Part shown: positions 392-26,065 of the stretch, piece after piece
Layout of the letters: each line of letters begins with the position of its first letter
Position numbering within the stretch: position 1 is the stretch's first letter
DNA from: Erysipelotrichaceae bacterium
GTDB lineage: Bacteria > Bacillota_I > Bacilli_A > Erysipelotrichales > Erysipelotrichaceae
Direction of reading: 5' to 3'
NCBI GenBank assembly: GCA_003543215.1
Contig: DPJD01000001.1
Location: 326,188-390,187 of the forward strand
Length of the DNA: 64,000 nucleotides
Position numbers and translations under genes: made by a program
The notes under the pieces: model-generated
Databases searched by the model: none
The model's input: only the letters and a program-made list of their open reading frames with translations
Told to the model about the DNA's origin: nothing

Positions 392-1354
392 ATGCTAAAA
401 CGGATTGGAGTTCTCACCTCTGGGGGTGACTCACCAGGCATGAATGCAGCGATTCGTGCGGTGACACGTTCTGCCTTATCACAAGGAATCGAAGTCGTAG
501 CCATCGAAGATGGTTTTAAGGGCATGGTCGAAGGATCGATGTACTTGATGAATACGCGTTCGGTCAGTGATATTCTCTATCGAGGAGGAACCATTTTGGG
601 TTCAGCCCGACTACCAGAGTTTAAGGATATCGAAGTTCGCAAAGTCGCTGTTGCGAAATTAAAAGAATTTGGCGTCGAAGCTGTTGTGGTGATTGGTGGC
701 GATGGGACATATCGTGGGGCAATGGCACTTACGGATATGGGCATCAACTGCATCGGTCTACCAGGTACGATTGACAATGACATCGTCTCAACCGATTACA
801 CGATCGGGTTTGATACGGCATTGAATACCGTCATTCAGAATATTGATAAATTGAGGGATACCAGTTCTTCGCATCACCGCTGTTCAGTGGTGGAAGTCAT
901 GGGAAATAAATGTGGGGATCTTGCGATCTATGCAGGCATCAGTTGTGGGGCTGAAATCATTGTGACTCAAGAAACGGGTTATGATGAACAAGAAGTCTTG
1001 GCAAAACTGCGTGAATTGGATACGAATCGTAAGAAGAAGCATGCGATTGTCGTCATCAGTGAGAAGATAACGGATGTCGAGATGTTGGCAACGAAGATCA
1101 GTAAGTCGACAGGGTTTTCTGGGCGTTCTACTGTTCTAGGCCACATTCAAAGAGGTGGATCTCCCACCGCATTTGACCGTGTCTTAGCAACCCGTATGGG
1201 GGATTATGCGGTTGAATTATTAGTGAAAGGGATTGGGGGCCATTGCGTTGGAATGGTTCACAATGAGATCACTTCCTTTCCAATTGAAGAGGCTTTGGCG
1301 ATGCCAAAGGCTTCACGTAAGGGTTTATTCGCCTTACACCAACGTTTGATCTAG
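392..1354 (+). CDS. pfkA: ATP-dependent 6-phosphofructokinase
   Basis: N-terminus RIGVLTSGGDSPGMNAAIRAV and GGDGT motif; 320 aa; RBS AAGGAGG upstream. Confidence 0.95.
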   Translation: MLKRIGVLTSGGDSPGMNAAIRAVTRSALSQGIEVVAIEDGFKGMVEGSMYLMNTRSVSDILYRGGTILGSARLPEFKDIEVRKVAVAKLKEFGVEAVVVIGGDGTYRGAMALTDMGINCIGLPGTIDNDIVSTDYTIGFDTALNTVIQNIDKLRDTSSSHHRCSVVEVMGNKCGDLAIYAGISCGAEIIVTQETGYDEQEVLAKLRELDTNRKKKHAIVVISEKITDVEMLATKISKSTGFSGRSTVLGHIQRGGSPTAFDRVLATRMGDYAVELLVKGIGGHCVGMVHNEITSFPIEEALAMPKASRKGLFALHQRLI

Positions 1355-1362
1355 GAGAAACT

Positions 1363-2787
1363 ATGAAAGAAATTCGTAAAACTAAAATTGTATGTACACT
1401 GGGCCCTGCGACAGAAACCCCTGAAATGGTTCAAAAACTCGCTGAAATTGGCATGAACATCGTTCGTCTCAACTTCTCGCACGGCAACCATGAAGACCAT
1501 GGCAAGCGGATCAAGATGGTCCGTGAAGTCAGTGATGTGGCGGGATATAACTTAGCCGTCATGTTGGACACCAAAGGTCCTGAAATCCGTTGTGGAGAAA
1601 TGACGGATGGCGTTTTGCATTTCACAAAGGGTGATGTGGTAAAAGTCGTCAAGGAACCTGTTTTGGGAACCAATGAACGTTTCCATGTGGATTGCCCTGA
1701 AATGTATGCCGATGTCAAACCTGGGAATTACTTGTTGATTGATGATGGGAAAATGCGTTTGACCATCACCGATGTGGAACCTGGTGTTTTGACTTGCCGT
1801 ATTGAAAACTCAGGCATCATCAAGACACGTAAGGGTGTCAATGTCCCAAATGTTAAATTATCAATGCCATTCATTTCTGAAAAGGATGAAGGCGATCTAC
1901 GTTTTGGCTGTAAGATGGATGTGGATTTTGTCGCGGCAAGCTTTGTAAGAAGAGCTTCTGACGTCTTAGCCATTCGTAAGATTCTTTTATCGGAAGGCAA
2001 ATCCAAGATTCAAATCATTGCGAAGATTGAAAACCAAGAAGGCTATGACAACTTGGATGAAATCTTGGAAGTATCCGATGGCGTTATGGTTGCGCGTGGC
2101 GACTTGGGTGTTGAAGTCAGTACCCAATTGGTCCCAATCTACCAAAAGAAAATCATCAAGCGTGCGAATGAAGTCGGTAAACCGGTCATCACCGCTACGC
2201 ATATGTTAGAGTCCATGATGGGCAATCCGCGTCCGACGCGTGCAGAAGCCAGTGATGTGGCGAATGCGGTTTTAGATGGCAGTGATGCGATCATGTTGAG
2301 TGGTGAAACAGCTGCAGGGGAATATCCTTTGGAAGCGGTCACGACGATGGATATCATCTCACGTGCAATGGAAGAAATTCTTCCTTACCGTGAGCGTTTG
2401 GATCAAGCGATCAAATCGTCACGTAAGACGATTCAAGATGCGATTGGGATTTCAGTTGCGGATTCTGCTTTGCAATTGGATAAGGTTAAGGCGATTGTGG
2501 CCTTTACCCAAGGAGGGTCCACGGCTCGACGAATTTCGAAATTCCGTCCTCCAGTACCTATATTCGCTGTAACATTCACGAAGTCTGTTCAACGTAAGTT
2601 GGAATCACATTGGGGTGTCATCCCGATCTTGTCAGATATTCAAAATGAAATGACGAACGATGATGAATTGGCAACAATCATTGCCAAGGATCGTGGTTTG
2701 GTCCGTGGTGACTATGTGATCATTACCGCTGGGTACCCGACTGGTGAAGGTACTGCCAATATGATGAAGATTGTTGAAATCAAATAG
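1363..2787 (+). CDS. pyk: Pyruvate kinase (short form without PEP-utilizer C-terminal domain)
   Basis: KTKIVCTLGPA, NFSHG, MVARGDLGVE motifs; 474 aa; classic pfkA-pyk pairing. Confidence 0.95.
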   Translation: MKEIRKTKIVCTLGPATETPEMVQKLAEIGMNIVRLNFSHGNHEDHGKRIKMVREVSDVAGYNLAVMLDTKGPEIRCGEMTDGVLHFTKGDVVKVVKEPVLGTNERFHVDCPEMYADVKPGNYLLIDDGKMRLTITDVEPGVLTCRIENSGIIKTRKGVNVPNVKLSMPFISEKDEGDLRFGCKMDVDFVAASFVRRASDVLAIRKILLSEGKSKIQIIAKIENQEGYDNLDEILEVSDGVMVARGDLGVEVSTQLVPIYQKKIIKRANEVGKPVITATHMLESMMGNPRPTRAEASDVANAVLDGSDAIMLSGETAAGEYPLEAVTTMDIISRAMEEILPYRERLDQAIKSSRKTIQDAIGISVADSALQLDKVKAIVAFTQGGSTARRISKFRPPVPIFAVTFTKSVQRKLESHWGVIPILSDIQNEMTNDDELATIIAKDRGLVRGDYVIITAGYPTGEGTANMMKIVEIK

Positions 2788-2796
2788 GGGACAAAC

Positions 2797-3696
2797 ATGA
2801 GAACAGTAATCGGGATTGATTTGGGTGGCACGAATGCACGTGTTGCCAAAGTAACAGAAGATGGTCAAATCTTACAAGTCGTAAGCGCTCCTTCACATGC
2901 TTTGGAGGGTACTGAAAAAGTCATGGACAATCTCAAATCTTTGATCCGTCAGATCAAGGGTTTCGATGAAGTCATTGGCATTGGCATTGGTGTACCAGGT
3001 CCTGTCGATACCGTTCGTGGTGTCATGACTATGGCAACCAATCTTCCGGGTTTTGAAAACTATCCAATGGCTCAAGAAATTGAACGTGAGTTCAACAAAC
3101 CAACTTATGTCGATAATGATGCGAATGTCGCAGGTTTGGCTGAAGCTTTGGTTGGGGCTGGTAAAGGTTATAAGATCGTCTACTATATGACCCATTCTAC
3201 CGGTGTTGGTGGCGCATTGGTCGTCGATGGCAAGGTTGTATCGGGTAAAAATGGTTATGCCGGTGAAGTTGGAAACATCATCGTTACCAGTGAAGGTGAA
3301 AAAATCAATCACTTGAACGTTGGGGCAGCTGAGAATGTTTTCAGTGGTACCGCTTTGGTCAAATTGGCTCAAAAGGAATTGGATCCAAAGATCACTTCCG
3401 CTAAAGCCATCTTTGATTTAGCTCAAGAAGGCAACGAAAAAGCAATTAAGATGATCGATGACATGGCATATCACTTTGCACTCTTGTGCTCGGCGATTGG
3501 TCATGTGGTGGATCCACATGTATTCGTCATTGGTGGTGGGGTTGCGAAGTCGCATGCCTTCTACTTTGACAAAATTTTAAACAACTACAACAATTTAGTG
3601 CATGTCGGTATGCGCAATCCGCTCTTCAAACGTGCTGAGCTCACTGAGCCAGGCATCGTTGGGGCCGCAATGCTTCCGATATCGCACGGAAGATAG
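2797..3696 (+). CDS. glcK: ROK family glucokinase
   Basis: IGIDLGGTN N-terminus, ROK-type DNDANVAGLAE motif; 299 aa. Confidence 0.85.
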   Translation: MRTVIGIDLGGTNARVAKVTEDGQILQVVSAPSHALEGTEKVMDNLKSLIRQIKGFDEVIGIGIGVPGPVDTVRGVMTMATNLPGFENYPMAQEIEREFNKPTYVDNDANVAGLAEALVGAGKGYKIVYYMTHSTGVGGALVVDGKVVSGKNGYAGEVGNIIVTSEGEKINHLNVGAAENVFSGTALVKLAQKELDPKITSAKAIFDLAQEGNEKAIKMIDDMAYHFALLCSAIGHVVDPHVFVIGGGVAKSHAFYFDKILNNYNNLVHVGMRNPLFKRAELTEPGIVGAAMLPISHGR

Positions 3697-3703
3697 GAGT
3701 TTT

Positions 3704-4942
3704 ATGTTAAGAAGAAAAACATTATTAAGCAAATACGCTGAGTTGGCAGTTAAGATTGGGGCAAATGTCCAAAAGGGTCAACCTTTGATGATCAGTGCCA
3801 ACATCGAAACAAAGGATTTCATCCGTATCTTGGTTGAAGAAGGGTATAAGGCTGGGGCTTCCTATGTCTTTGTCCGCTACAACGATGAAATCGTCAATCA
3901 TCATAACTTTACCTATTGTGATTTGGATGTATTGGGTACGGTTCCAAATTATATCGTGGAACAGTTCAATTACTTCATTGAAAAAGGTTATGCCTTGATT
4001 TCCGTTCATGCGGAAACACCGGGTTTGATGGCAGATATCGATCCTATCAAGATTCAAACGGCTGCGATCGCACAAAACAAGGCGCTTAAATCTTGGCGCG
4101 AGCACACCATGGGCAATCGTACCCAATGGTGCGTCATTTCTGTCCCTACAGCAGGTTGGGCTAAGAAAGTCTTCCCAGACATCACCGAAGAAATGGCAGT
4201 TGATGCCTTGTGGGAAGCCATCTTCAATGCGGTACGTGTTCGTGAGGACAATGATCCAGTTGCAGAGTGGGAAAAACACAACGATACCTTGCATAAACAC
4301 AATAAGGCATTGAATGATTATAACTTCAAATCCTTGCATTTCAAGAACGCTTTGGGAACCGATCTTACGATCGAACTCATTCCGAATCATGTTTGGGCAG
4401 GGGGCAATGAGAAGTCGACCAAGGGTGTTGTGTTCAATCCAAACATGCCTACGGAAGAAAGCTTCACCATGCCATATAAGTACGGTGTGAATGGTAAAGT
4501 CGTTGCGACAAAACCGTTGAATTACAATGGCAATCTGATCAAGGATTTCTGGTTGGAATTCAAAGATGGTAAAGTCGTCAATTACGATGCCAAAGAGGCA
4601 AAAGATTCACTCAAGAGTTTGGTTGAGTTTGATGAAGGTTCATCCTATTTGGGTGAAGTCGCCTTGATCTCACACGATTCCCCAATCTCCAACAGCAATA
4701 TCCTCTTCTTGAACACCTTATTCGATGAAAACGCATCGTGTCACTTGGCCTTGGGTAGAGCATACCCAATGAATGTCAAAGGTGGCAACGATATGACACA
4801 AGAAGAATTGGATAAGTTGGGTTCAAACAACTCGATGGAACACGAAGACTTCATGTTTGGTAGTGCAGACATGTCCATCATCGGCTTGACGCAAGACAAT
4901 CAAGAAGTAATCGTATTCAAAGACGGTAATTTCGCATTCTAA
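3704..4942 (+). CDS. Aminopeptidase, M29 (AmpS/PepS) family
   Basis: Starts MLRRKTLLSKYAELAVKIGANVQKGQ, typical of M29 aminopeptidases. ATG 3704 follows GGAG; the longer ORF from 3602 would overlap the glcK 3' end. Confidence 0.85.
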   Translation: MLRRKTLLSKYAELAVKIGANVQKGQPLMISANIETKDFIRILVEEGYKAGASYVFVRYNDEIVNHHNFTYCDLDVLGTVPNYIVEQFNYFIEKGYALISVHAETPGLMADIDPIKIQTAAIAQNKALKSWREHTMGNRTQWCVISVPTAGWAKKVFPDITEEMAVDALWEAIFNAVRVREDNDPVAEWEKHNDTLHKHNKALNDYNFKSLHFKNALGTDLTIELIPNHVWAGGNEKSTKGVVFNPNMPTEESFTMPYKYGVNGKVVATKPLNYNGNLIKDFWLEFKDGKVVNYDAKEAKDSLKSLVEFDEGSSYLGEVALISHDSPISNSNILFLNTLFDENASCHLALGRAYPMNVKGGNDMTQEELDKLGSNNSMEHEDFMFGSADMSIIGLTQDNQEVIVFKDGNFAF

Positions 4943-4945
4943 TCA

Positions 4946-4972
4946 AGGGAACAGGCGTTCCCTTTTTCTTTT
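4946..4972 (+). terminator. Intrinsic terminator after aminopeptidase gene
   Basis: AGGGAAC-aggc-GTTCCCT followed by TTTTCTTTT. Confidence 0.7.
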
Positions 4973-4984
4973 GTTTATGTTAAT

Positions 4985-5007
4985 GTGTATATACATTGTA
5001 TATACAC
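4985..5007. promoter_or_regulatory. Perfect 11-1-11 bp palindrome (putative antitoxin operator)
   Basis: GTGTATATACA-T-TGTATATACAC ends 1 nt before the AGGAG RBS of the DinJ-like gene. Confidence 0.5.
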
Positions 5008-6064: not shown

Positions 6065-6391
6065 ATGAGTTCTATTAGAGATAATTTTCGTCGTATCAGA
6101 GAATCTATGAATATAACGCAAGCAACCTTAGCAGAGTATCTGGGTATCGATCAATCCATGCTTAGTAAATTTGAAAAAGGTGAACGAGAGTTAAGTACAC
6201 ATCACCTTGATAAGGCGTGTTTGTTATTTGGTTGTTTCATACAAGACTTGGAGATTGAAAATTTTAGTCCAAGTTTAAAGATATTGTTTAGGGCAAAAGA
6301 ACTCGAATCTATTGACCTTGAATCGATATCAAAGATTCAGCAGATAGCCCTCAATATTATCGAAATGAAGGGGTTATTACATGAAGACTAA
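6065..6391 (+). CDS. XRE-family helix-turn-helix transcriptional regulator
   Basis: NITQATLAEYLGIDQSMLSKFEKGERELS is a canonical Cro/C1 HTH; RBS GGGGAGGA. Confidence 0.85.
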   Translation: MSSIRDNFRRIRESMNITQATLAEYLGIDQSMLSKFEKGERELSTHHLDKACLLFGCFIQDLEIENFSPSLKILFRAKELESIDLESISKIQQIALNIIEMKGLLHED

Positions 6392-7124
6392 AGACAGTTT
6401 ACAACGCTTTGCTTTTGATGTTCGCGCTCTTTTGGGAGCAGAAGTAGGTGGTCCCATCGACCTTAAAACACTTGTAGAAGCGTATGGAAAACTAACGATT
6501 GTATACTATCCTTTTGCAGATAATATTAGTGGTATGTGTTTAAAGTCAGCTGATTTGATTGCGATCAATTCGAGATCTACTTTAGGGCGACAGAATTTTT
6601 CTCTAGCGCATGAACTGTACCATTACTTTGATCATCAGAACGAAGATAATTCAGTATCCGTTGCTCAGAATTCTAAAGTTAAAGGAATTGTTTCTGAATT
6701 GGAAGCTGACCTATTCGCTAGTTATCTACTGATGCCTTCACAGTCCTTGCATTCAGATATTACAGAGCGTAAAGAGGATAGAAATAAATTAGAACTCAAA
6801 GATATTATTTTTATTGAGCAGCTTTATGGAGTGAGTCGAAAATCGTTGCTGGTGCGTCTTGTAGCAGATGGATATCTTACAGTAGATGAAAGTAAATACT
6901 TCGAAAAAGATATTCAAAGAGGAGCGCTTCGTTTGGGTTATGATTTAGCTCTATACAAAACTTGCGATAAGAATATTCATTCAACAACTGGGCGTTACCT
7001 ATCGCTCGCACATAAATTAAGAGATGCATCATTGATTTCTCAAGGTAGATTTGAATCCTATTTATTAGATGCTTTTAGAGAGGATTTAGTTTTTGATTTG
7101 GAAGTTAATGAAGTATATGACTAA
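6381..7124 (+). CDS. ImmA/IrrE family (COG2856, DUF955) zinc metallopeptidase
   Basis: HExxH motif in SLAHELYHYF; overlaps the XRE gene by 11 nt. Confidence 0.8.
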   Translation: MKTKDSLQRFAFDVRALLGAEVGGPIDLKTLVEAYGKLTIVYYPFADNISGMCLKSADLIAINSRSTLGRQNFSLAHELYHYFDHQNEDNSVSVAQNSKVKGIVSELEADLFASYLLMPSQSLHSDITERKEDRNKLELKDIIFIEQLYGVSRKSLLVRLVADGYLTVDESKYFEKDIQRGALRLGYDLALYKTCDKNIHSTTGRYLSLAHKLRDASLISQGRFESYLLDAFREDLVFDLEVNEVYD

Positions 7125-14664: not shown

Positions 14665-15258
14665 ATGAAGAAAATAGGATTATTAATCTTTGTGTTTCTA
14701 CTAACAGCGTGTGCGGTTAAGCCGGATGCGGTGTTGAGTGAATACTTCAATATGATTAAATCAAATGACAATGCGATTTATGATGCGGAGTTACATGCAA
14801 GTTACTTTGATCGTGATCCAGGGTTGAATACTGAAGATACAGAAGAATTATTAAACAATCAAACAGAAGCGGGTAAAGAACTCTCTACCGCGTATCTTGA
14901 TTTGGTACAAGAATTTGAGTACACCATCAACAGTACGACCATTACGGATGATGAGGCTGTAGTGAATGTGACGATCAAAGCGTATCCTTTGATGGATATG
15001 ACTTTGGATCTGATGAACCGTTTGATGTCAGCTTTGTTTAGCTTAACCTTTACGACGGAAGAAGAGACAACAGCGTATATGTTGGAGCAATTCAATCTCT
15101 TAAAAGTAGATTATACGAAATCGTTTGAAGGCACTGTTGATGTGTATTTGGTTAAGGTGGAGAAGGATTGGAAGATTGTGGGTGGTGATAAGAATCTACC
15201 ACTGTTCAATTCATTGACTGGGAATTTGATGAATATACAGGATGAGTTAGAGTACTAA
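14665..15258 (+). CDS. Lipoprotein of unknown function
   Basis: MKKIGLLIFVFLLTAC lipobox; GGAGGA RBS at 14654-59. The longer ORF from 14575 overlaps the upstream gene. Confidence 0.6.
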   Translation: MKKIGLLIFVFLLTACAVKPDAVLSEYFNMIKSNDNAIYDAELHASYFDRDPGLNTEDTEELLNNQTEAGKELSTAYLDLVQEFEYTINSTTITDDEAVVNVTIKAYPLMDMTLDLMNRLMSALFSLTFTTEEETTAYMLEQFNLLKVDYTKSFEGTVDVYLVKVEKDWKIVGGDKNLPLFNSLTGNLMNIQDELEY

Positions 15259-15279
15259 AGGGCAGAGGCCCTTTTTTTG
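15258..15279 (+). terminator. Intrinsic terminator (left edge of defence island)
   Basis: AAGGGC-agag-GCCCTT followed by TTTTT. Confidence 0.7.
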
Positions 15280-15519
15280 TTCAGTTGTTTGTATAGCATT
15301 GACATTTCAACTATGGTTTAGTTGGGAGGATCACTTTAATAAAAGATTTGGTGGGATATTTTCGATATTATTTTTGCTTTTTTTCATATTGCTTTTGATT
15401 ATTGCGGAATTGGTTAAGCAACAAAGGCCAAGAAGACGAAATTATTGATGAATCACTTGTAATTACAATGGTATAATGGCTTCAATGATGTCTTGTAGTG
15501 AGAGTGGGGAATAATAATA

Positions 15520-15834
15520 ATGAAAAACACAATTGAGAAGATACTTAAGTTTACGCATGATCGTGATTGGGATCAATTCCATAGCCCAGAAAATTTAGCG
15601 AAATCAATCTCTATAGAATCTGGAGAGCTATTGGAATGTTTTCAATGGAACAGTAAATTTGATCATGATAAAGTCGTCGATGAATTAGCGGACATTGTTA
15701 ACTACTGTATTTTGATGGCAGATAAATTGGATGTCGATTTAGAGACTATTGTTCTAAATAAACTTATAAAGAATGAACAGAAGTATCCGGTTGATAAGTC
15801 TAAGGGAAAGAGTGATAAGTACAACAATCTATAG
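15520..15834 (+). CDS. MazG-like all-alpha nucleotide pyrophosphohydrolase (dCTPase/DCTPP1-like)
   Basis: RDWDQFHSPENLAKSISIESGELLECFQW ... DELADIVNY gives the EExxE/D metal-binding motifs of the MazG NTP-PPase family; 104 aa. Confidence 0.8.
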   Translation: MKNTIEKILKFTHDRDWDQFHSPENLAKSISIESGELLECFQWNSKFDHDKVVDELADIVNYCILMADKLDVDLETIVLNKLIKNEQKYPVDKSKGKSDKYNNL

Positions 15835-15842
15835 GTGGGGAA

Positions 15843-17714
15843 ATGATCGTTTATTCGGATACAAAGTATAATTTTATGGAAGTTGTCTTGGATGGCCGAA
15901 TTGCAAATATTGTAGAAAAAAGCCTTCAGGATAAACTGAAAATTAGAGTTAGTCCAGCCGAGTTCAGTGCTTTTCAAAACTCGCTTGTTTTTGTGCGAAT
16001 GATGCTAAGTGAAACGAAATTGCATAATGATACGACTGTATCAATAGAATATCGTATTCCAAACACTTCAAAACGAATCGATTTTATAATCAGCGGCAAG
16101 AATGTAGAAGATAAACCTGCAGCAGTAATATTAGAACTAAAACAATGGTCACATGTTGAATCGATTTCAGGCTCAGATGGTTTGGTGCGGACATTCGTAG
16201 GTGGTAGTAAAAATGTTGTAACGCATCCTTCATATCAAGCATGGTCATATCAAAGTATGATCAGTGATTATAATGAAAATGTATATAAAATCCCGATTGA
16301 ATTATCATCATGTGTTTTTATGCATAACTATGCGCGTGAAGAAGGTAAAGGGATTTTTTCTTATGACTATGACAATTATCTTAGACAATCACCTGTATTT
16401 TCGAAAAATGATATTCGAAAATTGAGCCATTATATTGATGAAAGAATCATCGGACCAGATTACTTAAAAACAATCGAATTAATAGAACACGGTAAGATAA
16501 AACCTTCTAAATCACTGCAAGATTCACTGACTAAGATGCTAGACGGTAATCCTGAATTCATCTTGATTGATGAACAGAAAATTGTCTATGAGCAAGCAAT
16601 TGCGTTAGCTACAAAATCGATGAAAGACCGGAAGAAACGGGTAATGATCATCGAAGGTGGACCAGGTACGGGTAAATCTGTGGTTGCCATTAATCTACTT
16701 GTGCAATTCACCAAGAAATTAGAAATGCATTGCCGATATGTGACAAAGAATTCGGCACCTCGTTCGGTCTATAAGTTTTATCTCAAAAAACACGGAATGA
16801 AAGGGAAGAATATTGATTATCTTTTTACAGGTTCGGGTAGTTTTACAGATGTACCAACTGACTACTATTCATCTTTGATTGTGGATGAAGCTCACAGGTT
16901 GAATGCGAAATCTGGAATGTTTCAAAATTTAGGTGAAAACCAGATAAAAGAGATTATCAATTCAGCCCTCTTATCCGTATTCTTCATCGATCATGATCAA
17001 AAGATTCACATCAATGATATTGGTAGTGTTGATGAAATCAAGAAATGGGCAAAGTACTTAAATGCTGAAGTGTTTGAAAACAAACTTGTTTCGCAATTTA
17101 GGTGCAATGGATCTGAAGGGTACTTGAATTGGTTGGATGACGTACTTGATATAAGAGAAACTGCAAATACAGTTTTTGAATTTGATTATGAGTTCAAGAT
17201 TTTCGATAGTGTACAAGAAATGCGAAAAGCTATCGAAGAGAAGAATCAAGGTAGGAACAAGTCACGTATGTTAGCGGGATATTGTTGGGACTGGATTTCG
17301 AAAAGTAATAGTCAACTCTTCGACATAGAATTCAAGGAAGAGAATTTTAAAATGAGATGGAATCTCAACAGTGAAATTTATGCGATATCGGATTCTTCAA
17401 TTAATGAGATTGGATGCATACATACTTCTCAAGGCCTCGAGTTTGATTATGTCGGTGTCATTATTGGTGAAGACTTAACATTTAGTAATGATTGTGTTGT
17501 TACAGATTTTACAAAGAGAGCAAGCACAGATCAATCACTTAAAGGTATCATTACCTTGAACAAAAAAGATCCAGATAAAGCAGCTGAGATAGCCGATGAA
17601 ATTATAAAGAATACATATCGAACACTGATGACTCGAGGAATGAAAGGTTGTTTTGTGTACTGTGTTGATGAAACACTGAGTGAGTACTTAAAACAGCGAA
17701 TTAAATGGTCATAA
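15843..17714 (+). CDS. DUF2075 / Schlafen-type ATPase: N-terminal PD-(D/E)xK-like nuclease module + SF1 helicase-like P-loop domain
   Basis: RIDFIISG...VILELKQW (D...ExK), Walker A GGPGTGKS, Walker B IVDEAHRL, GYCWDW and HTSQGLEFDYVGVIIG signatures of DUF2075. Starts 9 nt after the MazG stop. Confidence 0.8.
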   Translation: MIVYSDTKYNFMEVVLDGRIANIVEKSLQDKLKIRVSPAEFSAFQNSLVFVRMMLSETKLHNDTTVSIEYRIPNTSKRIDFIISGKNVEDKPAAVILELKQWSHVESISGSDGLVRTFVGGSKNVVTHPSYQAWSYQSMISDYNENVYKIPIELSSCVFMHNYAREEGKGIFSYDYDNYLRQSPVFSKNDIRKLSHYIDERIIGPDYLKTIELIEHGKIKPSKSLQDSLTKMLDGNPEFILIDEQKIVYEQAIALATKSMKDRKKRVMIIEGGPGTGKSVVAINLLVQFTKKLEMHCRYVTKNSAPRSVYKFYLKKHGMKGKNIDYLFTGSGSFTDVPTDYYSSLIVDEAHRLNAKSGMFQNLGENQIKEIINSALLSVFFIDHDQKIHINDIGSVDEIKKWAKYLNAEVFENKLVSQFRCNGSEGYLNWLDDVLDIRETANTVFEFDYEFKIFDSVQEMRKAIEEKNQGRNKSRMLAGYCWDWISKSNSQLFDIEFKEENFKMRWNLNSEIYAISDSSINEIGCIHTSQGLEFDYVGVIIGEDLTFSNDCVVTDFTKRASTDQSLKGIITLNKKDPDKAAEIADEIIKNTYRTLMTRGMKGCFVYCVDETLSEYLKQRIKWS

Positions 17715-17824: not shown

Positions 17825-19996
17825 ATGGAAAACAATAAGCAATTTGATTGGGTAGATTTCTATAATGGATTCGCAAGAAAACTACTTTTGTACAAGGACA
17901 ATCGATCTGAATTAATTAGATTAATTAAGCTGGTTTTCAGTGACATTAATATGAGTTTACCAACTCTGGAACTAAAAAATGACATCGTTGATATTGATCC
18001 ATTCACTGTTTTTGGATTATTCAATAAGAGCCAATCCATTGATAGTCGGCTTAAATTAATAAAATCTATTACAAACCATTTTGATTTATCAGCCAAAACT
18101 CCTACAAGTTTCGATAGTATCCCCGTTCTAAATAATATGAATGCAACATTCTATTGTTTCATTGATGCAAGATCTGAGCATGATATAGACAACTTATGGC
18201 ATTTTTTTGAAGCAGCCCTTGAATATTCGGATAATCAGAGCTTTGAGAATAACGTAAGATTCTCAAAGTATTTTGATATCGTAGTTAATTTAAAAGGGAA
18301 TGGTAATAGCAAAATTACAATGGGACTCTATTGGATAGCTCCACACATCTATCTTAACTTAGACAGTAGAAATGAATGGTACATTTATAAATCAGGAAAA
18401 ATTCCTCTAAGGGTGGTGAATGATTTACCACAAATTAAACCAAAAATCATGTCATCAACTTATCTTGAAATTGTAGATAAGTTAGCCAACTTTATAAAAA
18501 GTGGTAATACTCAATTTAATGATTTTAGAGATCTTTCTTTTGAAGCTTGGCGATATTCTGAAGAGGTTAATCATGCCGCTAAACAAAATACTGTTAAAAC
18601 ACAACGAGATAAAAAAGGTGAAGCATTAGCTGATGCAGATGTTGATACGATTCATTACTGGATCTATTCTCCTGGAAATGAAGCAGTCAATTGGGATGAG
18701 TATTATTCTAAAGGCATAATGGCAATTGGATGGGGCGAACTCGGAGACTTAAGCCTATTTTCAAACAAAGACGAAATGAAGATTAGAATGAAAGAGGTAA
18801 TAGATAATACCAAAGGCTACAAAAATGCAGCTCATGCGACCTGGCAATTTGCAAATGAGATGAAAATCGGTGATGTAGTTTTCGTTAAGAAAGGGATGTA
18901 CAAATTAGTTGGAAGAGGAGTAGTAAGCTCAGAATATCAGTATGATGATTCCTTTGATGAAGAGTATCGGAATATTCGAAGTGTAAATTGGACAGATAAG
19001 GGAGAGTGGGATCATCCTGGTCTAGCTGTTATGAAGACACTTACGGATATCACTGCATACACTGATTATGTCGAAAAGCTGAATGCTCTTTTCGAGGGCT
19101 CAGGATATGAAGAACTCGAAATTGAAGATATCGTCTATCCACCATACACTAAACAGAAGTTCCTTGATGAAGTATATATTGAAGAAAGCAGTTATGATAA
19201 TTTGGTTCAACTGATTAAAAAGAAGAAAAATGTTGTTTTACAGGGAGCACCAGGTGTTGGAAAGACATACGCTGCAAAGCGCTTAGCCTACTCTATGATG
19301 GGTGTAAAAGACCAAGAACGGATTATGATGGTTCAGTTTCACCAGAGTTATACCTATGAAGATTTTATAGAAGGATTCAGACCATCTGGTACAGGCATGA
19401 ATTTTGAGATAAAGAAAGGTTCCTTTTATAATTTTTGTAAAAAAGCTGCAGAAAATATTGAAGAAGACTATTACTTTATCATTGATGAAATTAATCGTGG
19501 CAATTTGAGTAAGATCTTTGGCGAGCTTTTTGTGCTTATAGAAAATGATAAACGAGGTAATGCACTTCAACTATTATATTCTGATGAGAAGTTCTTTGTT
19601 CCAGACAACGTTTATATCATTGGGATGATGAATACTGCTGACAGAAGTCTTGCAATGCTTGATTATGCACTTAGAAGACGCTTTGCATTCTTTGATATGA
19701 GTCCAAGTTTCAATTCAGAAGGATTCAAGAGATATCAGAAATCAGTAAACAACGAGAAATTTGATCGTCTTATTGAAAGAGTAATAAAGCTAAACGAAGC
19801 TATCGAAACAGATGATTCGCTTGGATTGGGATTCAAAATTGGTCATAGTTATTTCTGTGATTTAACGAATGTAGATCACCAAGTCTTATCGAATATTGTT
19901 GAATTTGAACTTATCCCTCTATTGAATGAATACTGGTATGATGAACCGCAGAAATTGAAAGATTGGAGCAGTCATTTGAGGAGTGCTATTAAGTGA
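17825..19996 (+). CDS. mcrB: McrB-family AAA+ GTPase with a roughly 450-aa N-terminal extension
   Basis: Walker A LQGAPGVGKTY, McrB signature FIIDEINRGNLSKIFGELF and MMNTADRSLAMLDYALRRRF. The middle region IMAIGWGELGDL...IGDVVFVKKG...GRGVV looks like an EVE/PUA-type fold. Confidence 0.85.
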   Translation: MENNKQFDWVDFYNGFARKLLLYKDNRSELIRLIKLVFSDINMSLPTLELKNDIVDIDPFTVFGLFNKSQSIDSRLKLIKSITNHFDLSAKTPTSFDSIPVLNNMNATFYCFIDARSEHDIDNLWHFFEAALEYSDNQSFENNVRFSKYFDIVVNLKGNGNSKITMGLYWIAPHIYLNLDSRNEWYIYKSGKIPLRVVNDLPQIKPKIMSSTYLEIVDKLANFIKSGNTQFNDFRDLSFEAWRYSEEVNHAAKQNTVKTQRDKKGEALADADVDTIHYWIYSPGNEAVNWDEYYSKGIMAIGWGELGDLSLFSNKDEMKIRMKEVIDNTKGYKNAAHATWQFANEMKIGDVVFVKKGMYKLVGRGVVSSEYQYDDSFDEEYRNIRSVNWTDKGEWDHPGLAVMKTLTDITAYTDYVEKLNALFEGSGYEELEIEDIVYPPYTKQKFLDEVYIEESSYDNLVQLIKKKKNVVLQGAPGVGKTYAAKRLAYSMMGVKDQERIMMVQFHQSYTYEDFIEGFRPSGTGMNFEIKKGSFYNFCKKAAENIEEDYYFIIDEINRGNLSKIFGELFVLIENDKRGNALQLLYSDEKFFVPDNVYIIGMMNTADRSLAMLDYALRRRFAFFDMSPSFNSEGFKRYQKSVNNEKFDRLIERVIKLNEAIETDDSLGLGFKIGHSYFCDLTNVDHQVLSNIVEFELIPLLNEYWYDEPQKLKDWSSHLRSAIK

Positions 19997-21033
19997 TTCC
20001 TGTTAAGAATATTTACTACATGTTGTCTTATGCTTTTCGCGCATTAAATAGCCAAGGGTATAAAGACATTTCTACTGAACAATTTAATAATGTGGCTGAA
20101 CTCTGTTCTAAGATTTTAACCATTGGGGTCAGTAGTCAGATAAAACAAGGTCTTGGCCGCAAGTACATCTCTGAGACCGAGGCTTTAACATCTCTAAAGG
20201 GGAGGATAAATATAACAGATTCAATCAAGAGTCAGACATTAATAAGAAGACAATTGGTTTGTACATTTGATGACTTCTCTGTAAATATACATGAGAACCA
20301 AATTATTAAAGCAACGATTGAATTATTACTAAAATCCAATATCTCAAAAGAACGTAAAATTGAATTAAGAAAGTTGTTAGTTTTTCTTAGTGATGTAGAA
20401 TCTATTGATATTCATTCAATTAATTGGAAATTACAGTATAATCGAACGAACCAAAACTATAGAATGATAGTTTCAATCTGCTACCTCATTTTGAAAGGCC
20501 TTTTACATACAAATAGTGATGGATCAACAAGATTAATGGATTTTTTGGATGAACAGCGAATGTCTAGGTTGTATGAGAAATTCATTCTTGAGTATTATAA
20601 AAAAGAGTTCCCTCAGCTTTCAGTGAGATCCTCTCAAATACAATGGATGTTAGATGATGAGAACAGTTTAATGTTGCCAGTGATGCAATCAGATATCATA
20701 TTGTCAAATAAAGATAATTATTTGATAATCGATGCCAAATATTATTCAAGTGTTACTCAATTGAGATTCGATACACAAACACTACATTCGGCGAACCTCT
20801 ATCAAATATTTACATATGTGAAAAATAAAGAGGTAGAATTACAAAGCAAACCGCATAAAGTTTCTGGTTTGTTGTTGTATGCGAAAACTGATGAAGGTAT
20901 TTCGCTAAATAATTCCTACATGATGAGCGGCAATAGAATAAGTGTCCAGACTCTGGATTTGGATTGCAGCTTTGAACAGATTACTGCGCAACTTGATGCT
21001 ATTGCATTTGATAGTTTTAGAGATCTTACCTAA
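19993..21033 (+). CDS. mcrC: McrC-family endonuclease subunit
   Basis: GTG start overlaps the mcrB TGA (GTGA). PD-(D/E)xK motif DIILSN...LIIDAKYY. 346 aa, typical of McrC. Confidence 0.8.
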   Translation: MIPVKNIYYMLSYAFRALNSQGYKDISTEQFNNVAELCSKILTIGVSSQIKQGLGRKYISETEALTSLKGRINITDSIKSQTLIRRQLVCTFDDFSVNIHENQIIKATIELLLKSNISKERKIELRKLLVFLSDVESIDIHSINWKLQYNRTNQNYRMIVSICYLILKGLLHTNSDGSTRLMDFLDEQRMSRLYEKFILEYYKKEFPQLSVRSSQIQWMLDDENSLMLPVMQSDIILSNKDNYLIIDAKYYSSVTQLRFDTQTLHSANLYQIFTYVKNKEVELQSKPHKVSGLLLYAKTDEGISLNNSYMMSGNRISVQTLDLDCSFEQITAQLDAIAFDSFRDLT

Positions 21034-21094
21034 ATTCTTTCTGCCTGATGAAGAAGAAATGTAAATCGGGATGAAATTGAGGAGGTGGCTTAAT

Positions 21095-21772
21095 ATGATG
21101 ATTAGCCCAGAAAGTTATTATGAAGAATATCTCAGTGGAAGAACTAAAGAACAGATTATGAGCGCTATTCGTGGTCTTAAGCAAGAAATTGGGCGTCTTA
21201 AAAATTCAATGGAAAACCCAAACTTTAGCCAAGTAGAAGTTATGCATCCTAGTGAATATACACGCCTTGACTTGACACGAGAGTATTTGAAAAGAGCCAA
21301 ACAAGCATATGCTGAAGCTGGAGGAACGTATGCTTTATCAAAATCAGAAAAAAGATCTGCTGATTTTAATTCAAATATAGATTTCATATGTAAGATCAAT
21401 TTCAGCATTGGTGGATTCTTTGGTGGTTACCGTAAATATACTATAGAACTAACAGATGAGTTAAAAGTTCATGCAAAAATATGGGATCTTGAAGAACCAC
21501 TATACTTGTTCGATGAAGAAGGTGAATTTATAACAAAGGAAAATTTTATTGCTTTACTGTCTACCATCCATTTAGAGGAATGGCGAAGAAATTATACGAC
21601 TCAACGTTTCGGATATGAGGTATTCGATGGTACCCAATGGGAACTGGAAGTTAAGTACAATAATGGTCGTAAACCAGTTAGGTTTTCTGGTAGTAACGCA
21701 TATCCGTATAATTTCGAGAGATTTAAAGCATTATTGGAGATTGAAGATGCAATAGATGCCGAAAATGCATAG
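21095..21772 (+). CDS. Hypothetical protein (226 aa), no recognisable motifs
   Basis: ATG 21095 preceded by GAGGAGG. Coding-like composition, same strand, 61 nt after mcrC. Confidence 0.5.
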   Translation: MMISPESYYEEYLSGRTKEQIMSAIRGLKQEIGRLKNSMENPNFSQVEVMHPSEYTRLDLTREYLKRAKQAYAEAGGTYALSKSEKRSADFNSNIDFICKINFSIGGFFGGYRKYTIELTDELKVHAKIWDLEEPLYLFDEEGEFITKENFIALLSTIHLEEWRRNYTTQRFGYEVFDGTQWELEVKYNNGRKPVRFSGSNAYPYNFERFKALLEIEDAIDAENA

Positions 21773-21964
21773 ATTTAGAAGATTTGATTTTTAATTTTCT
21801 CGATAGCACTTATTTCAATGGAGTAAACGATTGCTTTTATCCATCAGTGTATTGGTAAAATATCCACGAATTTTCTGATCAGAAATTCTACTGAAATCTG
21901 TTCATTTACATTTAGATAGCTTTTAAACTGTATGCTAATTAACCAAAACATAGAGAGGACTTTC

Positions 21965-22930
21965 ATGCCCCTAGCCATCATTCGTCAAGATATCACCACA
22001 ATGCATGTCGATGTCATCGTCAATGCCGCAAATACACAACTTAGAAAAGGTGGTGGAGTTTGTGGTGCGATCTTCAATGCGGCAGGTGCAGAGAACCTAC
22101 AAACCGCATGTGATGTCTATGCGCCAATAAAAGTTGGAGGTGCTGTTTTAACTTCTGGCTTCAAACTTCCAGCACGATATATTATTCATACAGTTGGACC
22201 TGTCTACAAAGATGGGAAATCGAATGAAGAAAAATTGCTGTCGAATGCTTACTGGAATAGTTTAGAGCTTGCGATAAAACATGAATGTACCAGCATCGCA
22301 TTTCCACTAATCTCAAGTGGTATCTATGGGTATCCTAAAGATGAAGCACTTCATGTTGCGATGTCGACAATCCGGAGCTTCCTTGAATCGCATGAACTGA
22401 TGGTCTATCTCGTCTTGTTTGACAAAGCAAGCTTCAAGATCAGTCAAGAACGTTTAGGTGATATTCAAAGCTATATTGATGAAAACTATGTAGAGACCCA
22501 TACTTTTGGTAGAGGTCGCTTCAATGAACCCGATCTTGTTCAGTATAAACAAGCATCCGTCAAAGACATCCAAGACTGGGTTAAACTGGTCGACCAATCC
22601 TTTTCCGAAACACTCTTGTATTGGATCGATGTCAAAGGGATGAAGGATGTGGAAGTCTATAAACGTGCCAACATGGATCGTAAATTATTCTCAAAGATAC
22701 GATCCAACAAAGATTATATTCCCAATAAACGAAATGTTTTGGCTTTGTGCATCGCAATGAGACTAGACATTAAAGAAACAGAAGCCTTATTAGAGTGTGC
22801 AGGTTATGCACTTTCTTCCAGTCAACTCTTTGATGTGATCATACGCTATTACATTGAAAACAAGATCTATGACATTGATGAGATCAATACGGTGTTATTC
22901 CAGTATGATCTGGCATTGTTGGGTGTTTAA
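21965..22930 (+). CDS. Macro domain (ADP-ribose/O-acetyl-ADP-ribose hydrolase, MacroD-like) fused to a roughly 150-aa C-terminal helical, possibly HTH, domain
   Basis: VDVIVNAANTQLRKGGGVCGAIFNAAG ... IIHTVGPVY ... IAFPLISSGIYGYP are canonical MacroD motifs. The C-terminal half is unrelated to macro. Confidence 0.85.
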   Translation: MPLAIIRQDITTMHVDVIVNAANTQLRKGGGVCGAIFNAAGAENLQTACDVYAPIKVGGAVLTSGFKLPARYIIHTVGPVYKDGKSNEEKLLSNAYWNSLELAIKHECTSIAFPLISSGIYGYPKDEALHVAMSTIRSFLESHELMVYLVLFDKASFKISQERLGDIQSYIDENYVETHTFGRGRFNEPDLVQYKQASVKDIQDWVKLVDQSFSETLLYWIDVKGMKDVEVYKRANMDRKLFSKIRSNKDYIPNKRNVLALCIAMRLDIKETEALLECAGYALSSSQLFDVIIRYYIENKIYDIDEINTVLFQYDLALLGV

Positions 22931-25110: not shown

Positions 25111-25389
25111 TTGATATCGTATGTGATATTATGGAGGTGTAAGATTAGTTCTAAAGAGAAAAGAATAAAGCGATTACTTTCAGAACCTTATCGAAAAGAC
25201 ATTCGTTTTGATGAATTAGTTCTGGTGATGCATGATTTTGGCTATCGTTTGGATCGTATTAGAGGTAGCCATGCTTATTTCATTCATTCAAAGTACCCAA
25301 ATATCTGTGTACCTAAACATGAACCCATTAAAGTTGCCTATATTAAGTCAATTATTCAAGTGCTGAAAGCACAGGAGGAAACACGATGA
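25111..25389 (+). CDS. hicA: HicA family type II toxin (mRNA interferase); start codon uncertain (TTG 25111, GTG 25123, or ATT 25144 six nt after GGAGG)
   Basis: ...FDELVLVMHDFGYRLDRIRGSHAYFIH... matches the HicA/YcfA dsRBD-like fold with its GSH motif. Confidence 0.7.
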   Translation: MISYVILWRCKISSKEKRIKRLLSEPYRKDIRFDELVLVMHDFGYRLDRIRGSHAYFIHSKYPNICVPKHEPIKVAYIKSIIQVLKAQEETR

Positions 25390-25724
25390 ATTATCCAATG
25401 CGCTTATACACTGTTGAAACCGTAGAAGGACCAGAATGGATTGCTGAGTTTGTGGATATCTTTGGTTGTGTTGGTGGAGGGAATACTGCAAAAGGAGCTT
25501 TGGAAGATGCCTTGATTAACTTGGAGTATTATTTGGGGTTTGTAAAAGAAAGGGGTGAGGATATTCCTCAGCCCTCTGATTATAATGAATGCAACGGTAA
25601 GATTGCTTTACGTTTACCAAAATCGATGCATCGTCGTTTATTGAAATTATCAGAAGATGAAGGGAAAAGTTTAAATCAATTGATTCTCGATTCATTTGAA
25701 AGAAAGATGGGTGGGAATGAATGA
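25386..25724 (+). CDS. hicB: HicB family antitoxin, copy 1 (N-terminal HicB fold + C-terminal RHH)
   Basis: ATGA overlap with hicA. EGPEWIAEFVDIFGCVGGGNT...EAL HicB core. KIALRLPKSMHRRL RHH strand. Confidence 0.8.
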   Translation: MNYPMRLYTVETVEGPEWIAEFVDIFGCVGGGNTAKGALEDALINLEYYLGFVKERGEDIPQPSDYNECNGKIALRLPKSMHRRLLKLSEDEGKSLNQLILDSFERKMGGNE

Positions 25725-26055
25725 ATTATCCAATGCGCTTATACACTGTTGAATCCGTAGAAGGACCAGAATGGATTGCAGAATTTGTAGATATTTTCGG
25801 TTGTGTTGGTGGAGGGAATACTGCACAAGAGGCTTTAGAAGATGCCTTGATTAACTTAGAGTATTATTTAGAGTTCGCAAAAGAAAGGGGTGAGGATATT
25901 CCTCAACCCTCAGATTATAATGAATGCAATGGAAAGATTGCTTTACGGTTACCAAAGTCGATGCATCGTCGTTTGGTGATGAAAGCGGATGAGGAAGGTG
26001 TAAGTTTAAATCAACTCTTGGTTTCTTATCTTGCGGAAATGTTGGGAGCAAAAGG
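25386..26055 (+). repeat. Tandem direct duplication (2 x 335 bp) covering the two hicB genes
   Basis: Both units start ATGAATTATCCAATGCGCTTATACACTGTTGAA. DNA is near-identical for about 265 nt and then diverges. Confidence 0.85.
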
Positions 26056-26065
26056 TAAAATTTAA
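25721..26065 (+). CDS. hicB: HicB family antitoxin, copy 2 (tandem paralogue)
   Basis: 80/85 identical to copy 1 over the N-terminal 85 aa, divergent after HRRL; ATGA overlap with copy 1. Confidence 0.8.
   Translation: MNYPMRLYTVESVEGPEWIAEFVDIFGCVGGGNTAQEALEDALINLEYYLEFAKERGEDIPQPSDYNECNGKIALRLPKSMHRRLVMKADEEGVSLNQLLVSYLAEMLGAKGKI

Follow-up and report, generated by a model that had tools for sequence, protein, structure and literature searches.

A two-gene cassette pairing a MazG-like pyrophosphohydrolase with a nuclease-like DUF2075 helicase, conserved across bacteria and archaea and located in an Erysipelotrichaceae defence island

In a 64,000-nucleotide stretch of contig DPJD01000001.1 from an Erysipelotrichaceae bacterium (GenBank assembly GCA_003543215.1), referred to here as the window, two adjacent open reading frames (ORFs) on the + strand encode a 104-residue MazG-like protein (15520..15834) and a 623-residue protein in which a nuclease-like domain precedes a DUF2075 helicase (15843-17714). 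The two genes form a horizontally mobile cassette that is conserved across bacterial phyla and archaea. In this Erysipelotrichaceae-like genome the cassette is situated in a low-GC (guanine plus cytosine) defence-island hot spot, with type IV restriction enzymes as recurrent neighbours. The reading that we favour, at about even confidence, is that the pair is a phage-defence module. A first-pass annotation, made from the letters of the window, had given correct coordinates for both ORFs, and all motifs that it quoted are indeed found in the translations (ESGELLE, DELAD, RIDFIISG, ILELKQW, GGPGTGKS, IVDEAH, GYCWDW and HTSQGLEFDYVGVIIG).

The association of the two genes was examined in both directions. 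In the forward test one genome per species was scanned, which gave 80 loci of the helicase family (32-56% identity) from Firmicutes, Proteobacteria, Bacteroidota, Verrucomicrobiota, Planctomycetota, Chloroflexota and Saccharibacteria, as well as from methanogens and other archaea. This survey of DUF2075 neighbourhoods for MazG, which the first-pass annotation had suggested, recovered an adjacent MazG-like ORF on the same strand at 48 of the 80 loci, or 48/69 if only loci with usable flanks are counted; 21 loci with usable flanks were without MazG and 11 were uninformative. In the reverse test 80 metagenomic loci best matching the MazG-like protein were inspected. An adjacent DUF2075 gene on the same strand was present at 48 of these, which corresponds to 48/59 of the loci with at least 1 kb of flanks, and was absent in 11. 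Clustering of all neighbouring ORFs of the 80 helicase loci revealed the MazG-like gene as the only conserved neighbour. Three MazG homologues that were looked up individually all had the helicase gene immediately downstream, and on a haloarchaeal (Halalkalicoccus) plasmid the RefSeq entries 'nucleotide pyrophosphohydrolase' and 'DUF2075 domain-containing protein' are 5 nt apart. The MazG-like gene is mostly found upstream of the helicase gene, the two overlapping by 4 nt or being separated by as much as 30 nt; the reverse order, with the MazG-like gene downstream, occurs in Lachnospiraceae, Halomonas and some others. Because the co-occurrence holds in both directions and across phyla and archaea, chance adjacency of the two genes is excluded, and the pairing with an enzyme of the dCTP pyrophosphatase 1 (DCTPP1) type is strong enough to be regarded as a functional link. 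The tight pairing proposed in the first-pass annotation is thus found in the reciprocal counts, but MazG is not an obligatory partner. A Mantel (mirror-tree) test of pairwise identities gave r=0.34, a value reached in 0/2000 permutations. This modest correlation supports co-inheritance, not tight co-evolution.

The pair is also kept in a divergent DUF2075 subfamily, whose helicase (SG193, discussed below) is 26% identical and is likewise accompanied by MazG. Members of the helicase family are present on some plasmids and megaplasmids. They are rare in phages, with 4 hits among 50,697 phage records and 4 loci in IMG/VR, and a phage origin of the family was rejected on these counts. The pair is kept in three of four distant homologues on viral contigs and in a Microcystis 'phage' record.

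The small protein matches the MazG-like family PF12643 at 7.5e-20 (71.4 bits, cut-off 27), and its closest solved structures by sequence are DCTPP1/RS21-C6 (7.9e-17), in agreement with the MazG/DCTPP1 type assigned earlier and with an all-alpha, DCTPP1-type deoxynucleoside triphosphate (dNTP) pyrophosphohydrolase. More than 8,000 homologues were scored. In 32 MazG-like partner proteins the residues F11, R15, W17, H21, E33, E36, F41, E55, D58, K81, Y89 and P90 are invariant, and among these E33, E36, E55 and D58 (ExxE ... ExxD) are the metal-binding and catalytic residues that align with E63, E66, E95 and D98 of DCTPP1. The pocket of DCTPP1 has been described as comprising His38, Trp47, Glu63, Glu66, Trp73, Glu95, Asp98 and Tyr102, with the two tryptophans touching the 5-methyl group. 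Seven of these eight residues are kept, W47, E63, E66, W73, E95, D98 and Y102 being represented by W17, E33, E36, W43, E55, D58 and Y62. The retention of both catalytic and pocket residues argues that the MazG-like enzyme is very probably active, and a cytosine-type, 5-substituted dNTP is a plausible substrate. The mammalian enzyme DCTPP1/RS21-C6, which is known to rid the nucleotide pool of 5-modified dCTPs, has the metal ligands and the two 5-methylcytosine-contacting tryptophans in common with the small protein of the window. In contrast to DCTPP1, the window protein is without a 10-residue insertion, the N-terminal His38 and a C-terminal tail, and DCTPP1 has no helicase partner. At one locus (L113, 3974-5341) the MazG-like domain forms the N-terminal part of a 455-residue protein, the other ~350 residues of which have no Pfam match.

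The helicase core of the large protein occupies residues 265-609 (16635..17669, + strand) and is of the DUF2075/Schlafen group III type, belonging to superfamily 1B (SF1B). The match to PF09848 (SLFN-g3_helicase, formerly DUF2075) has an E-value of 3.8e-99 and 332.7 bits and covers profile positions 1-354 of 354, which bears out the family assignment in the first-pass annotation. The expected motifs are present as Walker A GGPGTGKS, Walker B VDEAH, SQFRCNGS, GYCWDW, HTSQGLEF and the arginine-finger region YRTLMTRG. An alignment of 18 sequences shows invariant GGPGTGK, VDEAHRL, SQFRCNGS, GYCW, H-T-x-QGLEF (of the SF1 motif V type) and YRTL-x-x-RG. The AlphaFold model of the full-length protein, with a predicted local distance difference test score (pLDDT) of 72, was matched by Foldseek to SLFN11 (2.3e-8) and RecD2 (7.9e-8), and further to Dda, Dna2, Upf1 and the coronavirus nsp13 helicase, all of SF1B type. 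More than 8,000 helicase homologues were scored; those among the matches listed are ~620 residues long and 52-94% identical.

The N-terminal domain (residues 1-238; 15843..16556, + strand) is predicted to be a RecB-like nuclease of the PD-(D/E)xK type. It bears the signature E69, D80, E98-x-K100 and Q132-xxx-Y136; the QxxxY that comes after the PD-(D/E)xK residues is a motif known from RecB-family nucleases. Across 37 homologues with 27-46% identity, E69, D80, E98, K100, W102, H128, P129, Q132 and Y136 are invariant. The AlphaFold model of this domain (pLDDT 83) has an alpha-beta-beta-beta-alpha-beta core on which the signature residues are located. Comparison by hhalign with the N-terminal domain of the validated Nhi-like protein of B. 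cereus and two relatives gave 96.9% with an E-value of 1.6e-10 over 170 columns, and the alignment lines up the E, D, ExK and QxxxY positions. The N-terminal domain of Nhi-like is itself a nuclease by prediction. These profile comparisons indicate a distant, superfamily-level relationship between the large protein and the validated Nhi-like defence proteins. Pfam has no match in residues 1-251, a profile of the N-terminal domain found none among PDB sequences even at E-values up to 10, and a search with the large protein sequence against PDB chains found nothing. The domain comprises 2,525 clusters at 50% identity and is always N-terminal in full-length proteins, which are of ~620-650 or ~790-810 residues. 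With ~2,500 such clusters and more than 8,000 homologues for each of the two proteins, this family is among the more widespread nuclease-helicase families of bacteria and archaea that are without a demonstrated function.

A resemblance to single-protein immunity enzymes such as Nhi had been proposed, and this holds for the architecture and for the N-terminal homology to Nhi-like but not for membership of the Nhi family proper. Nhi (SERP2475) of Staphylococcus epidermidis combines a PD-(D/E)xK nuclease and a DUF2075-overlapping SF1 helicase in one polypeptide that acts on phage DNA (Bari et al.). Its activities were measured and it has no MazG partner, whereas the activities of the window protein are predicted. 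The Nhi-like protein of Bacillus cereus FSL H8-0482 is a nuclease plus DUF2075 protein with validated defence (Millman et al. 2022). It likewise begins with a PD-(D/E)xK-type domain and has PF09848 in its C-terminal portion, but it is encoded by a single gene without a MazG partner. Identity with this validated protein was rejected, the BLASTP match having an E-value of 0.005 and covering the P-loop region only. Membership of Nhi, AbiO and PDC-S41 was rejected, since none of the models is matched in full: the PADLOC Nhi model aligns residues 243-423 to model positions 185-332 of 470 (1.7e-9), the AbiO model matches in part, and the PDC-S41 model matches residues 414-606 only, while a true member encoded by a neighbouring gene scores 6.3e-242. 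A 712-residue Nhi-like/PDC-S41-type DUF2075 protein adjoins the present helicase family at L014 (4270-6405) and L044 (2854-4995), so that in one Methanobrevibacter and one Saccharibacteria genome two nuclease-DUF2075 subfamilies stand side by side.

The Schlafen group III proteins SLFN11 and SLFN14 have a helicase domain of the same Pfam family, and SLFN11 is the best fold match, but their N-terminal domain is a tRNA-cleaving Slfn/AlbA_2 nuclease instead of a PD-(D/E)xK domain and TM-scores to the window protein are low (~0.33). Dna2, RecD2 and Dda share the SF1B fold, and Dna2 also has a PD-(D/E)xK/RecB-type nuclease N-terminal to the helicase. All three serve in replication and repair and have chromosomal roles that are conserved, and a relation to the window protein was not detected at the sequence level.

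The first-pass annotation knew of no experimental work on a MazG and DUF2075 pair. Such work does exist: Table S2 of Millman et al. 2022 lists the pair as candidate system 'Pyrophosphatase', with two constructs. It was one of 45 candidates picked by their defence-island signal, and the assays were done in E. coli and B. subtilis with 26 phages and native promoters (Millman et al. 2022). Construct SG192, from Bacillus firmus LK28, encodes a pyrophosphatase of 98 residues and a DUF2075 protein of 643 residues, and its observed defense is given as 'x'. Construct SG193, from B. thuringiensis Lr3/2, encodes a DUF2075 protein of 619 residues and a pyrophosphatase of 108 residues, and is marked 'Cloning failed'. 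Over the 399 residues available, the DUF2075 protein of SG192 shares 49% identity with that of the window (E 5e-135). For the pyrophosphatase of SG192 and the MazG-like protein of the window the identity is 45% (E 5e-28), and in SG192 as in the window MazG is upstream of DUF2075. The hosts of SG192 and SG193 are Bacillaceae, whereas the window is from an Erysipelotrichaceae-like genome. With SG192 negative and SG193 uncloned, the family was never named, described in the text or characterised, and the study notes that candidates without verified activity may yet protect in different conditions (Millman et al. 2022). A literature search on DUF2075/PF09848, PF12643, MazG-Schlafen, DCTPP1 in phage defence and S24-helicase combinations found no characterisation of the pair, and none later than that study. 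The MazG systems of DefensePredictor were considered and set aside, as they have a different architecture (MazG plus MazG-C kinase).

The arrangement of the two genes in the window suggests a single transcription unit. A terminator-like hairpin (15257..15274, + strand; 7-pair stem with 4 G-C pairs and a TTTTTGTT tail) lies directly after an upstream lipoprotein-like gene and is the upstream boundary of the unit. A possible extended -10 element, TGGTATAAT, is present at 15469..15477 on the + strand, 43 nt upstream of the MazG-like start; it was read by eye and is tentative. A consensus promoter scan did not report it, because a good -35 hexamer is lacking. The spacer between the two genes is 8 nt (GTGGGGAA), with the TAG stop ending at 15834 and the ATG at 15843, and the 9 nt given in the first-pass annotation needs to be corrected. 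The ribosome-binding site GGTGGGG that it proposed for the helicase gene is present as a Shine-Dalgarno-like string at 15834..15840 (+ strand), overlapping the last base of the MazG stop codon within the spacer. The GTGGGGAA string also precedes the start codon of the MazG-like gene (15504-15511). A scan of the + strand found no terminator-like site between the MazG-like and helicase genes, nor between the helicase gene and mcrB. The two genes of the pair are probably co-transcribed.

Directly downstream of the helicase gene, and outside the module, is a type IV modification-dependent restriction system, as had been noted before. It consists of McrB (17825-19996, + strand, 723 residues; NCBIfam McrB 2.4e-86) and McrC (19993-21033, + strand; NCBIfam McrC 1.5e-123). 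This McrB has a 440-residue N-terminal extension that matches DUF8425/DUF8426, and its residues 286-391 match the PADLOC candidate PDC-S02, so that the DNA-recognition module of this protein is of another type than that of E. coli McrB. Next come a 233-residue ORF (21071-21772) with no match in Pfam, PADLOC or NCBIfam and a 332-residue Macro-domain protein (21932-22930), ADP-ribose hydrolase-like, in which the domain match leaves the C-terminal half (about residues 180-332) uncovered. The GC content is 0.33-0.35 across 15 to 22 kb, against 0.39-0.45 on both flanks. A 92-kb contig from a sediment metagenome also encodes the exact window protein and agrees in gene order. In a 94%-identical relative, L085, the flanking genes (thrS, BioY, Flg_new, Macro) and the MazG-helicase pair are those of the window, and the Macro gene borders the variable slot in both. 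In the window this slot (17825-21772) holds McrBC and the 233-residue ORF, whereas in L085 (11911-15661) it holds a GmrSD type IV enzyme and a NERD/HRDC protein. In view of this swap the pair lies at the edge of a variable slot that exchanges defence cassettes, and the slot downstream of it looks like an exchange hot spot for such cassettes. Outside the island, a HicA toxin gene and two HicB antitoxin genes are found at about 25123-26065, roughly 2 kb beyond it, and an HTH_3 plus Peptidase_M78 (ImmA/IrrE-type) pair at about 6065-7124, upstream of thrS (both positions converted from L084 coordinates, offset 5842). HicA/HicB and HTH_3 plus Peptidase_M78 pairs are common companions of mobile elements.

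At the other loci the genes around the pair vary, with many type IV restriction enzymes (McrBC, GmrSD, PLD-helicase-DUF3427 with NUDIX), Gabija, Abi and Fic among them. Among 148 flanking proteins, the top PADLOC families were type IV methyl-directed restriction enzymes, PDC-S04, PbeA, HNH and type I restriction endonucleases, and there was one BrxC; Pfam domains in flanking proteins include HTH_3, ResIII, Fic, HNH_2, DUF3427, AAA_5, PLDc_2, integrases and NUDIX. Targeted searches at the 80 loci located McrBC in 3 and a PLD-helicase-DUF3427 protein in 5-7, the latter often together with NUDIX. A same-strand block of PLD-helicase-DUF3427, NUDIX, MazG and DUF2075 genes occurs in Faecalicoccus and at L002, L032, L169-L171 (3701-9177) and L007. 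This four-gene block consists of two nuclease-helicases, each beside a small nucleoside triphosphate (NTP) pyrophosphohydrolase, and at L169 and L170 it adjoins conjugative-element genes. The PLD-helicase-DUF3427 and NUDIX couple follows the same logic as the present pair but with unrelated folds (PLD nuclease, SF2 helicase, NUDIX). Its recognition of modified cytosine by DUF3427 is experimentally supported: DUF3427 enzymes bind DNA with 5-methylcytosine or 5-hydroxymethylcytosine and restrict T4gt, and the McaZI group was previously noted to co-localise with DUF2075 NTPases. At L168 the pair lies between Abi_2 and Gabija. MazG-like genes that have no helicase beside them have as neighbours GmrSD and Abi_2 (L164), a DUF3427 helicase (L150) or a Dam-type methyltransferase (L129). 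On the Hymenobacter canadensis plasmid NZ_CP114769 (L082, 6001-9987), genes for a BPTD_3080-family restriction endonuclease, a DNA methyltransferase and a DUF4747 protein are followed directly by two tandem DUF2075 paralogues without MazG.

Some lineages show an additional domain that could be involved in regulation. In 13 homologues of 790-824 residues from Proteobacteria and Verrucomicrobiota, the C-terminal ~170 residues match Peptidase_S24 (Pfam 3e-9 and 1e-6, above threshold; L025, L026, L028, L034-L036, L038, L039, L042, L046, L048, L053 and L069), and 11 of the 13 have an adjacent MazG gene. Aligned to E. coli LexA and UmuD, all 13 long homologues keep AAG at the LexA Ala-Gly site, the serine in GESM and the lysine in T-V/I-K. 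An Ala-Gly site together with such a serine and lysine is the hallmark of RecA-stimulated self-cleavage. The retention of cleavage site, serine and lysine suggests that in the S24-bearing lineages the motor is switched by RecA filaments on single-stranded DNA. The large protein of the window ends at residue 623 without an S24 domain. The literature search found nothing on an S24-helicase fusion. A different, possible link to DNA damage is seen at L088, L096 and L098 (~1000-5000), where MazG-like genes 64-65% identical to that of the window come after a Y-family polymerase (IMS) gene and a YolD-like gene. At these three loci a conserved 220-residue protein is encoded 4 nt after the MazG-like gene; it has no Pfam match, and a DUF2075 gene is absent.

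In view of the above, a mechanism can be considered in which the large protein is the effector. When a phage or mobile element invades, it would load onto the incoming DNA where this is single-stranded or forked, as has been shown for Nhi, and degrade that DNA. The small protein would be an accessory enzyme hydrolysing dCTP-type nucleotides, especially those modified at the 5-position, and two options exist for its contribution. It could remove precursors needed by phages that build modified-cytosine DNA. Alternatively, it could destroy modified nucleotides recycled from degraded foreign DNA and so keep host DNA free of them, since host DNA that contained them would be open to attack by the type IV restriction enzymes encoded nearby. 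In Proteobacteria and Verrucomicrobia the LexA/UmuD-like S24 domain would gate the activity via RecA filaments on single-stranded DNA. Action on modified cytosine nucleotides is something that we infer from homology and context. The complete proposal, a nucleotide-aware form of immunity in which a DNA-degrading motor is joined to a sanitiser of modified-cytosine nucleotides (acting by phage dCTP destruction or as a guard against self-restriction) and is unleashed by RecA in Proteobacteria, is put forward tentatively, as a possible yet rather unlikely reading.

Several observations weigh against phage defence or against the roles given here to the two proteins. T-even phages carry modified cytosine. 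T2 and T6 were among the 26 phages against which SG192 gave no protection (Millman et al. 2022). Identities of 45-55% across phyla are unusually high for a defence gene. About 30% of the helicase loci with usable flanks are without MazG, and no substitute partner recurs at such loci, where the neighbours include a BREX-associated DUF6079 protein and NERD, HTH and DUF3160 proteins; MazG is therefore not essential for the core activity. In the large protein, the PD-(D/E)xK proposal of the first-pass annotation has an invariant signature and the core topology of the AlphaFold model in its favour, but the Foldseek check that it suggested, done with the N-terminal domain alone, returned nothing significant. 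The best hits, at E-values of 0.07-0.08, were Can2 and EndoMS, both of them PD-(D/E)xK-fold nucleases. Motifs, topology and homology to Nhi-like are thus the basis of the nuclease assignment, and nuclease activity is a prediction from motifs and homology. In the small protein, the position of the DCTPP1 pocket residue His38 is outside the alignment and not conserved, and a dCTP-type substrate is predicted for this MazG-like subfamily by homology. Finally, the links to S24 and to Y-family polymerases also fit a DNA-damage function.

If the latter function applied, the pair would be an SOS-linked repair or tolerance module in which the helicase-nuclease processes stalled forks or damaged DNA, while the MazG-like enzyme cleans damaged or non-canonical dNTPs. 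House-cleaning MazG and DCTPP1 enzymes clear damaged or non-canonical dNTPs from the pool. This explanation would be consistent with the self-cleaving S24 domain of the 13 long homologues with its intact Ala-Gly site, serine and lysine, with the MazG-like genes of the same subfamily directly after Y-family polymerase and YolD-like genes, with the high conservation across phyla, with the negative phage assay of SG192 and with an architecture that is Dna2-like by fold, a nuclease plus an SF1B helicase. It agrees less well with a patchy distribution that is driven by horizontal transfer and shows no conserved chromosomal context, with the position of the pair in a low-GC variable island beside type IV restriction cassettes that are swapped, with neighbours that include Gabija, Abi, restriction-modification, BREX and Fic genes, and with an N-terminal domain homologous to that of a validated defence protein. 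Moreover, an S24 switch that responds to damage would fit the sensing of phage replication just as well. We consider a damage module possible, yet rather unlikely.

The remaining explanations differ in the role they leave to the MazG-like protein. The large protein could be a single-gene Nhi-like defence enzyme with the MazG-like protein as a dispensable passenger or regulator that has no part in the mechanism. The loci that lack MazG agree with this, as does the fact that Nhi and Nhi-like work as single proteins with the same domain organisation and, in the latter case, homologous N-terminal domains. Yet a reciprocal co-occurrence of ~70% and ~80%, in both gene orders and across phyla, domains of life and DUF2075 subfamilies, is hardly expected of a passenger, nor are the frequent overlap of stop and start codons and the strong constraint on the MazG catalytic residues, and this makes the explanation quite improbable. 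In an abortive-infection or toxin-antitoxin-like arrangement, a toxic nuclease-helicase would be restrained by the MazG-like protein, for example via a nucleotide ligand, until infection occurs. The failed cloning of SG193 could reflect such toxicity, the Sorek lab and PADLOC class PF09848 proteins with Abi (AbiO), and the Nhi paper discusses damage to host DNA. A strict toxin-antitoxin relation would bar a helicase that stands alone in ~30% of loci; in addition, SG192 was cloned without reported toxicity, and MazG has a full catalytic site, unlike an antitoxin that only binds. We therefore give this arrangement a very low probability. For simple adjacency of two genes with unrelated functions it can be said that small MazG-like genes are common, and nothing more; its probability is negligible, as the MazG-like gene is the only conserved neighbour and the association is found in both test directions, from Firmicutes to haloarchaea.

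The architecture of a nuclease joined to DUF2075, as in Nhi-like, was already known, and the pairing with MazG had been listed, undiscussed, as an unverified candidate. New are the reciprocal co-occurrence, now quantified in bacteria and archaea, the finding that the N-terminal domain is homologous to that of Nhi-like, the recurrent link to modification-dependent restriction with a parallel NUDIX-helicase pair, and the fusion to a LexA-type self-cleaving domain, which offers a directly testable activation switch. The parallel between the present cassette and the NUDIX plus DUF3427-helicase pair suggests a general principle, in which DNA-degrading defence motors travel with cleaners of the nucleotide pool. 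A function for the cassette, if shown, would explain the published negative result, and prokaryotic immunity would gain an activity, of a new fold, that sanitises or depletes nucleotides. It would also give a bacterial model for the human Schlafen helicase domain and DCTPP1. If the module is indeed nucleotide-aware, it would bring together, in prokaryotes, the ancestors of the Schlafen helicase and of DCTPP1, which in humans are genome-guardian and antiviral factors.

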